The notes under the pieces: generated by a model
Told to the model about the DNA's origin: nothing
The model's input: only the letters and a program-made list of their open reading frames with translations
Databases searched by the model: none
From: Hadesarchaea archaeon
GTDB lineage: Archaea > Hadarchaeota > Hadarchaeia > Hadarchaeales > WYZ-LMO6
DNA length: 45,601 nt
Assembly: GCA_029259185.1 (NCBI GenBank)
Contig: JAPDJF010000030.1
Location: 1-45,601 of the forward strand
Direction of reading: 5' to 3'
Program-made: the position numbers and the translations under genes
Shown: positions 6,531-42,484 of the stretch, in pieces
Numbering within the stretch: the first letter of the stretch is position 1
How the letters are laid out: every line of letters begins with the position of its first letter

Positions 6531-6580
6531 AAGCCCGATGACCCACTCCCCCTGCCCTCGGAGGTGGATTCGACGATAGG

Positions 6581-6868
6581 GTGACCTCCTCCCCTCGCTT
6601 TCGCAGGGGGGCTTCCGCTTTTCCCTCGCGCTTCGCGGAAGCTTTCCCCGCTTTAGCGGTGCTCTAGCCCCTGCTTCATCCACCGACCCGATCCCATCCC
6701 ATTAGGCGGTTACGGAGATCCAATGTCCATCCTACCTGCGCTGTGCAGGTCCACAGGCGTTGGGTTCGGGGTGGCCCTCTCCACCTCCCGGAAGAAATTG
6801 GAGGGGAAATAACGTGGTTTTCGGCTTTCATCCCCCAGCTCTCGCATGGAGGCTCCCCGCCGACAGAG
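6581..6868 (-). mobile_element. ORF-less IS200/IS605-derived mini-element (PATE/MITE-like) carrying a TnpB omega-RNA scaffold
   Basis: The left end follows TTTAA (6869-6873) and resembles the left end of the IS at 42469. The right end is ...GGAAGCCCCCCTGCGAAAGCGAGGGGAGGAGGTCAC. Blocks identical to the IS right-end region: CCTGCTTCATCCACC (6670-6684 vs 41516-41530), GGTTACGGAG (6708-6717 vs 41589-41598), CACAGGCGTT (6752-6761 vs 41609-41618). Confidence 0.8.
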
Positions 6869-6904
6869 TTAAATCTGAGGGAGCTGGAATTGAAAGTGAT
6901 CGGC

Positions 6905-7516
6905 ATGGAGTACTTCGCAGGCACGGTAGTGGGGTTGCGGGCTAAAGAGGGAATCGCCCTGGCCTCAGACACGCGTGGGGTCTCGTATTACATGGTGTTG
7001 AGCAAGCGAGCACGCAAACTCTTCAAATTGGATGAAAAAATAGGTGCTGCCTTCTCTGGAGCTCCGGGGGATATCCAGAGTCTGGTGAACTTCCTCAGAG
7101 TGGAGGCCAACATCTATCGACTGCAACATGGACGCACCATCTCCATCCGAGGATTGGCCCAAGTGGCATCGAACATCCTTCAAGGTCGAAGGTTGTTCCC
7201 ATACGTGCTTGAAGGGGTGATATCCGGAGTCGAGAGAGATGGGCCCCACCTTATCCTCATCGACCCTGCCGGCGGAAGGATCGAAGAGGAGGATTTCGCA
7301 AGCGGAGGTACGGGTGCTATGGTAGCATACGGGGTCTTGGAGAGAAATTACCGAAAAGGGATGAGCCTCCAAGAATGCGAGAAACTCGCCGCGGAGGCTA
7401 TTAAAACCGCTATAGAGCGGGATGCCGCGACTGGGGATAAGATAGTAGTCTCGATCATCGACGAAGGGGGGTACCGCGAGCTGTCCGATGAAGAGGTCGA
7501 GCGACTCCTCAAGTGA
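6905..7516 (+). CDS. psmB: Proteasome beta subunit (probably non-catalytic paralog)
   Basis: TVVGL...ASDTR...KLFKLDEKIGAAFSG..GDIQ, IDPAGG, GGTG, ERDAATGD. The real start is GTG 6896 or ATG 6905; the ORF-track extension runs into the mini-element. Confidence 0.92.
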   Translation: MEYFAGTVVGLRAKEGIALASDTRGVSYYMVLSKRARKLFKLDEKIGAAFSGAPGDIQSLVNFLRVEANIYRLQHGRTISIRGLAQVASNILQGRRLFPYVLEGVISGVERDGPHLILIDPAGGRIEEEDFASGGTGAMVAYGVLERNYRKGMSLQECEKLAAEAIKTAIERDAATGDKIVVSIIDEGGYRELSDEEVERLLK

Positions 7517-21692: not shown

Positions 21693-22006
21693 GGGGGTAC
21701 CGGCGAGCTGGTGGGCAGCTGCCGGGCGACTCCGTCGCCTGAGGAAATTCCATCCATCAAGTAGGCACCGCGAGCCCGTGAGGGCTAGACCGAGAGGTCT
21801 GACCCTGGCACAGAAACGACACCCACCGGTCCGTGGGCGATGATGCGGAAACGCTGAGGTCGGATCGGAGAGGGATGAAACGGCCAATCCGCGGGATGCA
21901 AGGGCAAGTTTCCATCGATGAGCGCCTACTCGAGATGGGTGGTGGCCCGCTGAGCCCAATGCTGCCTAAAACAGAAGATGGATTACGGCCAGCACGCCGG
22001 TGCCCC
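21693..22006 (+). ncRNA. rnpB: RNase P RNA, archaeal type A
   Basis: P1 GGGGTACCGGCG/CGCCGGTGCCCC. CR-I GAGGAAATTCCATC pairs with CR-V AACAGAAGATGGATTA (P4). P6 GTAGGC/GCCTAC, P8 and P9 tetraloop hairpins, ACAGAAAC and TGAAAC loops, K-turn-like GATGA..CTGA in P12. Confidence 0.93.
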
Positions 22007-38746: not shown

Positions 38747-38835
38747 GGGCCCGTAGTCTAGCCTGGATAGGACACTAGCCTGCGGGCAAAACCGGCAGAT
38801 AGCTAGTGGCTCGGGTTCGAATCCCGACGGGCCCG
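38747..38835 (+). tRNA. tRNA-Arg(GCG) with 15 nt canonical 37/38 intron (38786-38800)
   Basis: GGGCCCG/CGGGCCC acceptor stem, CTAGC/GCTAG anticodon stem, CT-GCG-G loop, BHB central helix CTGC/GCAG and TCGGG-TTCGAAT-CCCGA T arm. Confidence 0.95.
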
Positions 38836-40453: not shown

Positions 40454-40549
40454 CGCTGCCAGCTTCCGATTAGGGATCTTTCGTAATTCAATGAACACAG
40501 GTAGTTTATATGTGTTTATGTGCATATGCTTATAATAGGAGATGGGAAA

Positions 40550-40990
40550 ATGGCTTATGGTCAAGGAGGTTGGAGAAGAAGAAACATGTATTACCTCACC
40601 GGTCTGCCAGGATGGATGAGGTTCGGATATTTGACACAGACCGGACAAGTGCTTCAGCCTTCTCCAGCCCAAGTACCAGCGCAAATTTCAGTTCCCACTC
40701 ATGGGGACTGCGCTAATTTCAGGGATGGATTCTGCGCATTAAACGGTGCTGCTGTGGATCCTAGTGCCCCCGCGTGTCCAAGCTTCATACCGAAAAGTTC
40801 CACTCCAGCACCACAGACACCTTCAACGCACCCTATGTTTCAAGCATCAGCTGGTTTTCCTCCAGCACAAATGCCCCAGATACCTAAAGAGCAGGAAATC
40901 CAGATGTTGGAGTGGCAAGCAAGAATGGTGGAGCAACAATTAGAACAAATCAAAAAAAGGCTCGAAGAACTCAAAAAGGGGGTGAGATGA
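40550..40990 (+). CDS. DUF5320-like protein with internal 3-Cys/His motif
   Basis: RRRNMYYLTGLPGWMRFG N-terminus and KEQEIQMLE.QA...QLEQIKKRLEEL coiled coil. Confidence 0.7.
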   Translation: MAYGQGGWRRRNMYYLTGLPGWMRFGYLTQTGQVLQPSPAQVPAQISVPTHGDCANFRDGFCALNGAAVDPSAPACPSFIPKSSTPAPQTPSTHPMFQASAGFPPAQMPQIPKEQEIQMLEWQARMVEQQLEQIKKRLEELKKGVR

Positions 40991-41419
40991 ATGCTGTTTG
41001 GAATGGATCCCTATGGCTGGATGGGTATGTACGGATATCCATACTGGGATTGGAGATATAGGTGGTTCCCATGGTTGCCCACATGGTGGTGGACGGGAAT
41101 GTACGATCTCATAACACCTTTTACGGGAACACCAGGAATGCCCTACGGCCAACATAGCATGTACGCTCTAACGGCTGCACCATGGACAACCTATACACCG
41201 TACTACGCGCCACCCTACAGCACGTACGCACCACCGGCAACAGCAATGCCGAGCATGACCTACCCATCGCCATATGCACCGCCACCTTACCCAACTAGCA
41301 TGGAGATCCCTCAAATTCCGAAGGAACAAGAAATACAAATGCTTGAAAGCCAGGCGGCGGTGCTCCAGCAACAATTAGATCAGATCAAGAAGAGGCTTGA
41401 AGAACTCAGCAAAATGTAG
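40991..41419 (+). CDS. DUF5320-like Tyr/Trp/Pro-rich protein
   Basis: FPWLPTWWW motif, Y/P-rich linker and the same KEQEIQMLE..IKKRLEEL C-terminus. Confidence 0.7.
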   Translation: MLFGMDPYGWMGMYGYPYWDWRYRWFPWLPTWWWTGMYDLITPFTGTPGMPYGQHSMYALTAAPWTTYTPYYAPPYSTYAPPATAMPSMTYPSPYAPPPYPTSMEIPQIPKEQEIQMLESQAAVLQQQLDQIKKRLEELSKM

Positions 41420-41689
41420 GCCCCAATAGCTTGTCAACGAGTTCGACAAGTAGGGCGAAGGATGCTATGATACATATGAGCCCTCAGTGAACTACCCAGC
41501 TCTCGCAGGGGGCTTCCTGCTTCATCCACCAGACTCGATTCCCTTCACAGGTGCGGTCATCCGCTTTCAGCCTTGCGGATCTGCGGGAGGTTACGGAGGT
41601 CTTGACCTCACAGGCGTTCGCTCGGGCCGTTCCAGCTCCCTATCGAATCCCTCAGGGACGTTCTGCGAAGTACCTCTCCTTCCCGCTTG

Positions 41690-42039
41690 ACGATAACCCC
41701 CTTCACTTTTTCCTTAATCTTTCGGTGAAGCTTGATGGGGATCTACCGATTTTCGAGAGCACGAGCTTTCCGCTCTCAAGCTTGAAGCCCGACTGGTTGT
41801 AGTTCAGCGTCTTGAACCAGCCCCTTCCCTTGAACCGCAACTTCCCGATTTTTTTACCGCTCCGCTTTAGCCCAGCCAGAGCAAGCTTGGGTGTCCCCTT
41901 GCTTCAGCCTTATCCCCTTCTCATGCACAAAATTGAGTTCGGAGAGCAGGCGGTTGTAGAGCCACCTGCAAAGTGCCATGTGGTTCAGCTTCCGCTCGGC
42001 TGGCTTTGAAGGATACAGGCGGAACCTGTGGCTAAGCAC
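41690..42039 (-). pseudogene. tnpB: TnpB N-terminal remnant (RuvC and Zn finger deleted)
   Basis: HRFRLYP...CRWLYNRLL, then in a shifted frame KIGKLRFKGRGWFKTLNYNQSGFKL...LSKIG. Confidence 0.85.
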
Positions 42040-42413
42040 GCCCTTGTCCTTCCACATACCTTTTCAGCACATCGAGTGTTACCTGTCCAGTTGTGGCGAG
42101 AAAAATACGATGGAGACCAGAAAAACCATTTCCAGAGCTTTCTTTTTATCTACGCCGAGTTTCTCTCGATGCTATCGTTTTTATTGCAGACCTGGGTATG
42201 TCCAAGGTTGGCTTCGCCTTGAAGATCATGTGGAAGTGATCTTTGTCGCACTCCAAGTTTAGAACCTCGACTTGGAAACTCTCGCTTATCTCTCTCACTT
42301 TCTGCTTCAGCAAATCCACCACCTCGTTTTCAAGCACCTTTCTTCGGTATTTTACGACTTGAACTAGATGATACTGCAGGGCATGACTGAGTGTGCCCCC
42401 TTGTCCAACTCAT
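42032..42413 (-). pseudogene. tnpA: IS200-type Y1 transposase, frameshifted
   Basis: ELDKGAHSV / LQYHLVQVVKYRRKV, HUH motif DHFHM, FLATTG and YVEGQ, interrupted by frameshifts and a stop. Confidence 0.88.
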
Positions 42414-42484
42414 TATATCCTGCGGCTCTCATCCCCTAGCTCACGCGAGGGGACTTCTCGCCGCAGAAGTTAAAAACCCCGTCG

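Follow-up and report, generated by a model that had tools for sequence, protein, structure and literature searches.

An ORF-less IS200/IS605 derivative with an omega-RNA-type module upstream of an archaeal proteasome-beta gene

Contig C9 of an archaeal MAG (G000; 1.27 Mb, 54 contigs), referred to here as the window and analysed over its whole length of 45,601 nucleotides, carries at 6581-6868 a 288-nt ORF-less element which is almost certainly a palindrome-associated transposable element (PATE) with an omega-RNA-type module. We consider it probable, though far from assured, that the complete chain applies, that is, a PATE formed by internal deletion, mobilised by TnpA in trans and carrying an omega-RNA that is used by TnpB in trans. 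Taken separately, present-day use of the module with TnpB in trans is a matter on which the arguments are about evenly balanced. Most worth keeping from the analysis are the covarying scaffold, which crosses phyla and for which no coding parent was found, and the insertion of the element in an apparent promoter.

Results

Anatomy of the element

The element is read on the minus strand, where TTTAA (6873-6869), the presumed TnpA target and TnpB TAM, is directly followed by 288 nt that run from 6868 to 6581 and terminate in GGTCAC. The sole ORF that overlaps it (6676-6972) begins in unrelated flank, and the element itself has no coding capacity. Nucleotides 1-47 (6822-6868, minus strand) form the left end, which RNAalifold folds into an imperfect subterminal hairpin with one pair changing from GC to CG in 3 sequences. 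The right end (6581-6616, minus strand) consists of a hairpin followed by the terminus GGAGGAGGTCAC, which fits the 3' consensus of Rfam HgcC and belongs to a motif found across Archaea. The left-end and right-end hairpins are alike, terminal inverted repeats are absent, and no repeat of the flank occurs at the other end of the element, i.e. there is no target duplication. The ORF-less element with TTTAA, an IS-like left end, ordered blocks and a TCAC end that the earlier note had described could thus be read directly from the sequence.

On the 3' side of the left-end hairpin lies an AT-rich box, AAAACCACGTTATTT (6807-6821, minus strand), whose position matches that of the TATA-like box of tnpA in the full IS, where GATATAAT is found about 30 nt upstream of the tnpA ATG. 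AT-rich 8-mers follow this hairpin in most copies of the family (e.g. CATATATT, TATATTTT, GTTTATAA and ATAATTTA), with at least 7 A/T in an 8-mer at +4 to +10 in 8 of the 13 copies scored, and the box of the window copy, CGTTATTT, is weaker (6 of 8 A/T). From what is generally known of archaeal BRE/TATA elements, we take the box to be what was the promoter of tnpA and now points at the RNA module; as a predicted promoter it may drive transcription of that module.

The omega-RNA-like module (6581-6777, minus strand) is homologous to a tnpB 3' end together with the right end, and scores 162 bits with the family covariance model (CM R1). The scaffold-homologous portion accounts for approximately 197 of the 288 nt of the element, and the earlier description of the whole as almost entirely omega-RNA scaffold was therefore too generous. 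Two extra inserts relative to the IS discussed below had also been named, the hairpin ACCTGC-ACAGC-GCAGGT (6750-6734, minus strand; helix 1) and 53 nt between GAAGCAGG and GGAAGCCCC (6669-6617, minus strand) with the hairpin CCGC-UAAA-GCGG. Both are present, but they are family-wide, the 53-nt expansion being longer in other genomes, and the IS has an extra stretch of its own after CTCCGTAACC, where the mini-element is short. The flank CCTATCGTCGAATCCACCTC (6561-6580, minus strand) would supply the guide; at up to 3 mismatches it is unique in the MAG, so that the search for guide matches elsewhere returned the element's own flank only, and no tnpB match lies near 6581-6868.

Relationship to a degraded IS and to tnpB

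A degraded IS200/IS605 copy of 983 nt, with an in-frame TAA in tnpA and most of tnpB deleted, is located at 41487-42469 on the minus strand. Like the mini-element it starts, at 42469, after TTTAA, and the left ends of the two are 79% identical over 53 nt. The blocks AACGCCTGTG, CTCCGTAACC, GGTGGATGAAGCAGG and GGAAGCCCC occur in identical order in both; GAAGCAGG and GGAAGCCCC abut in the IS and are separated by the 53-nt expansion in the mini-element, and the span from AACGCC to TCAC is 181 nt in the mini-element versus 132 nt in the IS. CM R1 gives the right end of the IS 28 bits (E 5e-7). The shared blocks, which lie in the right-end region of the IS at 41487-41618, are also found in the tnpB 3' end on contig C34 of the same MAG, where they encode ..TPVE.. 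and ..LKQEAP.. of the TnpB protein. Since the conserved blocks represent the 3'-terminal part of the tnpB frame, tnpB sequence persists in the mini-element; the claim that no tnpA or tnpB is left thus holds in terms of coding capacity, but not in terms of sequence. Together, the shared blocks and the covariance model support the classification as an ORF-less IS200/IS605 derivative composed of a left end and a tnpB-3'/right-end module.

The degraded IS and the type B mini-elements of the MAG, an ORF-less family of about 245 nt with the end GTAGTTCAC and four copies, resemble the window element in the TTTAA target, the left-end hairpin, the block order and the TCAC end, and differ from it in the right end, which is GTAGTTCAC instead of GGAGGAGGTCAC, and in lacking helix 1 and the 53-nt expansion. 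The TnpB lineage on C34, with the right end closest to that of the window IS, aligns with the Pfam TNB domain over positions 1-33 only, out of 60 (..TSQNIPEGFDRD..), and this lineage, which is tied to the GTAGTTCAC right end, seems from its sequence to be without the zinc ribbon. The arrangement at C34:2-1120 (L026) is repeated in the degraded IS, at 41640-41700. Two neighbouring plus-strand ORFs of 156 and 142 aa (40520-41419) adjoin the IS; they share a nearly identical segment, located at one end of either gene, and look like tandem paralogues.

Copies and distribution of the family

The search for other copies that the earlier note proposed was productive, both within the MAG and, as set out below, in the class and in a second phylum. 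The MAG holds three full copies, namely the window element, C2:71792-72086 (91% identity) and C29:2547-2816 (81%), and three partial ones; other copies match the window element with E values of 5.6e-118, 5.6e-80 and 3.5e-76, which is far beyond chance. At least 10 full copies are present in other genomes of the class. In all 13 full copies compared, from four genomes, TTTAA lies directly 5' of the element, which starts with CT[CT]T and ends with GGTCAC, and the flanks are unrelated; this agrees with the assignment of TTTAA as the target. BLAST matches were obtained in 12 of 61 genomes of the same order and in 0 of 5 genomes of the same family, and CM R1 matches in at least 9 of 65 genomes of the class, the latter being a lower bound, i.e. 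a census of strong matches in which 33 candidates per genome were scored under strict filters.

Two full scaffolds were found in another phylum, in a Methanomethylicaceae MAG (L199:2500-2832 and L154:322-650) in which at least 12 loci have the right-end motif. These copies show compensatory changes in helix 1 (ACUGGC/GCCAGU), and their linker differs from that of the class copies. The presence of scaffold copies in a second phylum suggests transfer between phyla. Copies elsewhere are longer than the window copy, up to 337 nt, and have one further helix; the window copy is without 10 nt kept by the other 12 full copies, and one whole helix is missing from all three full copies in the MAG. The window copy is a shortened variant of the family, and in view of the 10-nt loss, the weak AT box and the missing helix it may be decaying.

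Other ORF-less elements were also observed. Members of a second family, about 340-400 nt long, share their right end with the window element but have a different, GC-rich interior (C19:3603-3943, C8:47157-47493 and C1 near 61955; L007 and L008), and at L053:1501-1547 in genome G052 a 47-nt element consists of the fused left/right-end hairpin alone, between TTTAA and GGTCAC. Nested elements occur in the MAG at C2:81108-81330 and C2:62277-62917; there, a tnpB fragment contains a GTAGTTCAC-type mini-element, and another IS, in opposite orientation, apparently cuts a truncated member of the window family.

RNA structure and covariation

The scaffold was aligned from 19 copies (A2) and from 20 copies including the two from the other phylum (A3), and the structure tested comprised seven helices from RNAalifold plus helix 1, derived from the same, related sequences. 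Across the 20 sequences, compensatory changes are seen in six internal helices, of which the CCTGC/GCAGG hairpin is one. In A3, with 38 pairs and 714 cells, 90.8% of the cells were paired as compared to 86.0% in shuffles, and 34 cells carried double changes as compared to 11.2, neither observed value being reached in any of 500 shuffles; 10 pairs were changed on both sides as compared to 6.1 (reached in 2 of 500 shuffles), and slid controls gave 40-48% paired, where both types of control leave the relatedness of the sequences in, and some of the compensatory changes may date from coding ancestors. Similar figures were obtained with the 19 sequences of A2 (shuffles 0 of 500), with 10-11 pairs changed on both sides over the two alignments.

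The inserted hairpins, which the earlier note had regarded as paired rather than random, are indeed paired with compensatory changes, and the covariation that had been sought in them was found in helix 1, where pair 42-52 occurs as UA (6), CG (5), UG (4) and GC (2), and pair 41-53 as CG (10), UA (2), GU (1) and UG (1). The helix that is missing from the three full copies in the MAG has UA 8 / GC 6 and CG 10 / UA 5 in two of its pairs elsewhere, and pair 235-246 of the 8-bp right-end hairpin occurs in 5 types. The hairpin in the 53-nt insert varies yet stays paired (CCGC/GCGG, CCC/GGG, CCAG/CUGG and GGGC/GCCC), as read by eye from A3, which is too ragged in this region for these variants to be counted by the tool. 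The long-range helix between GAYCUCC and the terminal GGAGGUC shows C-to-U variation alone, which is compatible with pairing and does not prove it.

Approximately 100 of the 714 cells, as counted from the pair table, are G:U, which would be A-C mismatches on the opposite strand, and because of these many G:U pairs the structure forms on the left-end-to-right-end strand alone. The single-sequence fold has no greater stability than shuffled sequences (z -0.92), and stability alone is therefore uninformative. Helix 1 is wholly missing in some relatives and a small hairpin in others; such gain and loss of whole hairpins, with the core kept, fits a structured RNA with variable arms.

Insertion site

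The element is flanked by a transglutaminase-like gene (end 6530) and a proteasome-beta gene (ATG 6905). Without 6581-6868, the plus strand would have ..GATAGG directly joined to TTAAATC.., some 30 nt 5' of the ATG, and each of the 5 orthologous loci, all from the same family, has GTAGG[GA]TTAAAAG at a like distance from the ATG. The TTTAA target corresponds on the plus strand to TTAAA within the presumed proteasome-beta TATA box, and since removal of the element restores the motif of the 5 orthologous promoters, the element appears to be inserted in this TATA box. At this split, presumed TATA box (6869-6905), the original sequence 5' of TTAAA has given way to left-end sequence.

In sequencing run X5, from a different study, a 1928-nt contig bridges 6532 to 6857 without the element, with 39 letters between the two sides that are a diverged copy of 6533-6569; the flank of the C2 copy is present in this run, too. 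Run X6 yielded no sequence, and run X7 fragments only. The copy in the window is therefore, on the X5 contig, strain-specific. In that contig the joint falls within the left end, by 12 nt, and outside the right end, by 11 nt, and because it is off the element boundaries it is no proof of precise excision by TnpA. The empty site looked for in the earlier note was accordingly obtained as a locus without the element, but the clean junction TTTAA/CCTATCG was not seen. Nucleotides 3-11 of the left end and 2-10 of the flank are alike at 7 of 9 positions, and judging from this, the two similar 9-nt stretches may have been the endpoints of a deletion, in which case the joint would not be the product of clean excision.

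TnpB and TnpA partners

There are 26 matches in the MAG to the TnpB zinc-ribbon domain, and three TnpB ORFs (369, 398 and 483 aa), located at C1:38425-39531, C5:15823-17016 and C11:25505-26953, look full-length, so that an intact resident TnpB, as called for in the earlier note, probably exists; but none of the 48 tnpB loci of the MAG and five relatives that were searched with the covariance model has the window scaffold 3' of the gene. The good matches in these 48 loci were two, one to a truncated copy of the window (type A) family with 120 bits, on the strand opposite a weak OrfB match and apparently cut by an adjoining IS, and one to a nested GTAGTTCAC-type (type B) mini-element. A coding parent of the scaffold was found neither by motif scan behind 22 TnpB matches, nor by ORF scans upstream of right ends in the fetched loci, nor by nhmmer on 17 tnpB loci of the five relatives. 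Across Archaea, the right-end motif occurs in at least 120 stretches of public genomes, and a TnpB-like ORF was located upstream in 5 of 81 occurrences (80 loci examined), all with different scaffolds, in a tblastn search with one TnpB query by which divergent TnpBs may be missed.

The tnpA genes of the MAG consist of one with a TAA stop, one 76-aa fragment and others cut at two contig ends. None was found in G035 and G011, the relatives richest in copies, and among the five relatives only G053 has tnpA matches without internal stop codons, two in number. Contigs of the MAG end inside IS200/IS605 elements at C34:7474-7723, C53:1032-1197, C24:21-104 and C6:21-104, with a left end and the start of tnpA or with N-terminal parts of tnpB, and intact multi-copy IS are therefore probably unassembled in the MAG.

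Discussion

In the reading that we favour, an internal deletion has removed tnpA and nearly all of tnpB, joining the left end and its promoter-like box to the last approximately 200 nt, which encode the TnpB omega-RNA scaffold in full elements. A Y1 TnpA acting in trans would excise and paste the element as single-stranded DNA, and transcription from the left-end promoter would run through the scaffold and on into the flank, so that the RNA would carry a guide for TTTAA followed by CCTATCG... A TnpB in trans would then cut the emptied donor site with that RNA, and recombination would restore the element, as in the TnpB/omega-RNA homing model given in PMC10055086 (Meers et al.). Conservation of RNA structure in a gene-less element would in this scheme be due to a benefit for retention.

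The element could instead be an inert relic, i.e. a PATE, whether still mobile or no longer so, with an RNA module that is functionless here and is kept as a spacer between the ends required by TnpA, with pairing inherited from a working tnpB. We regard this as unlikely, yet deserving of serious attention. The failure to find a cognate tnpB in the loci searched or an intact tnpA in the MAG is in line with it, as are the deletions of the window copy relative to the family, the divergence of the MAG copies to 81-91% and the differing linker in Methanomethylicaceae, by which some subfamilies may have arisen separately. It accounts less readily for the class copies, which share an alignable junction between left end and scaffold, yet have compensatory changes in four internal helices unneeded by TnpA; the variation moreover removes or adds whole hairpins and shows no erosion, and in at least 9 genomes the family has lasted with no coding parent. 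An RNA role independent of TnpB seems to us decidedly improbable, even if the absence of a cognate tnpB from the 48 loci suits it and there is a precedent for it: PMC4615843 reports an expressed PATE-derived RNA in Halobacterium (VNG_R0052), links such RNAs to Rfam HgcC, and describes improved growth upon overexpression of a PATE-derived RNA, for which competition for TnpA was proposed. Here, conservation extends beyond the end hairpin to the whole omega-RNA-like scaffold, and no target is indicated besides the element's own flank.

We give next to no credence to the suggestion in the earlier note that the element is a domesticated guide RNA, which would be a host-fixed guide for a nuclease-dead, TnpB-like repressor (TldR-like) or a regulator of the proteasome gene. 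Its position in the proteasome-beta promoter, and the one TnpB lineage in the MAG apparently without the zinc-ribbon half of the TNB domain, might be taken to point in this direction, but the suggestion is hard to maintain for an element whose family has several copies with unrelated flanks, which does not occupy this site in another strain or in any of 5 related genomes, and whose guide matches its own flank alone; nor does any tnpB-like gene adjoin the element. Another thought, which we find doubtful and do not wish to press, is that the GGAGGAGGTCAC-ended mini-elements form a guide-RNA lineage which, orphaned through the disappearance of its coding parent, has made its own scaffold expansions and crossed phyla, either borrowing TnpA and a TnpB with a different omega-RNA, as a parasite of the TnpB guide system, or acting without TnpB.

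The assignment as a PATE rests on comparison with haloarchaeal elements. According to PMC3119063, PATEs originate through deletion of the core; they are protein-less, have near-terminal palindromes like those of IS605-type transposons and a targeting sequence of 4-5 nt, do not duplicate their target, and comprise terminal-only forms of 52 bp as well. The window element shows every PATE feature tested here, being short and ORF-less, with subterminal palindromes, a target without duplication, and mobility. The likeness to the PATEs of Haloquadratum walsbyi (HqIRS), as they are presented in that paper, includes the lack of protein and of inverted terminal repeats, the subterminal palindromes, the absence of target duplication, the targeting sequence of 4-5 nt on the 5' side and strain-specific insertions, and the 52-bp terminal-only forms resemble the 47-nt fusion of left and right ends at L053. 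The present case differs in its host, which belongs to another archaeal lineage and to a hydrothermal setting, in its TTTAA target, and in that the window family keeps a structured scaffold of about 200-240 nt, for which the coding parent was not found in the loci searched.

With respect to the omega-RNA, the origin from the tnpB 3' end and right end and the covarying structure were both found, and a TnpB partner was not found in the loci searched. The combination is not new in principle, as PMC10055086 already holds that PATEs often encode omega-RNAs and that TnpB of other IS elements must act in trans, so that the idea of omega-RNA-bearing PATEs which need both TnpA and TnpB in trans is already in print. 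The PATE-like elements of Geobacillus stearothermophilus treated in that paper are likewise gene-less, minimal IS200/IS605 derivatives with a TAM that equals the TnpA target and a guide in the right flank. That system is bacterial and experimentally backed; for the window family, a scaffold-matched TnpB was not found in the searched genomes. Selfish DNA of this sort has been described before, and we report a further, well-documented case of it instead of a new system. The literature search on Hadarchaeota and TnpB turned up one preprint, which was unrelated, PMC12558985 makes no mention of PATE, MITE, orphan or HgcC, and the PATE tables of PMC3119063 and PMC10055086 may hold closer relatives.

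The family provides a well-resolved archaeal example for a point that has been made briefly in print, namely that gene-less IS200/IS605 derivatives retain a guide-RNA module. Compensatory conservation across a class and into a second phylum, with no coding parent found, is what would be expected if the RNA aids the persistence of the element. The family alignment and covariance model furthermore offer natural scaffold variants, with hairpins added or lost, by which the needs of TnpB can be tested. For genome annotation it should be considered that TTTAA-targeting elements can fall in archaeal TATA boxes, as in the present case, in which the promoter of an essential-looking proteasome gene is split.

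The sotRNAs, VNG_R0052 and HgcC, as treated in PMC4615843, are archaeal RNAs that originate, as is the case here, from an IS1341-type tnpB 3' end and from a fusion of the left end with the right end, and the consensus terminus of HgcC (RF00062), GGGGAGGAGGUCA, is the same as in the window element. The element scores 14.4 bits with RF00062 (E 0.46), below the gathering threshold of 50, and is for this reason not an HgcC member by the Rfam rule. No HgcC score in the MAG reached 50 bits, the best values being 29.4 and 25.3 bits for the ORF-less family of 340-400 nt, and permissive scans of the window gave sub-threshold HgcC only. At the Rfam gathering thresholds, the window contains an RNase P RNA and two tRNAs only; the former is an archaeal RNase P RNA at 21703-21997 (223 bits), and the tRNA genes at 1332-1445 (114 nt) and 38747-38835 (89 nt) have spans that are long enough for introns.
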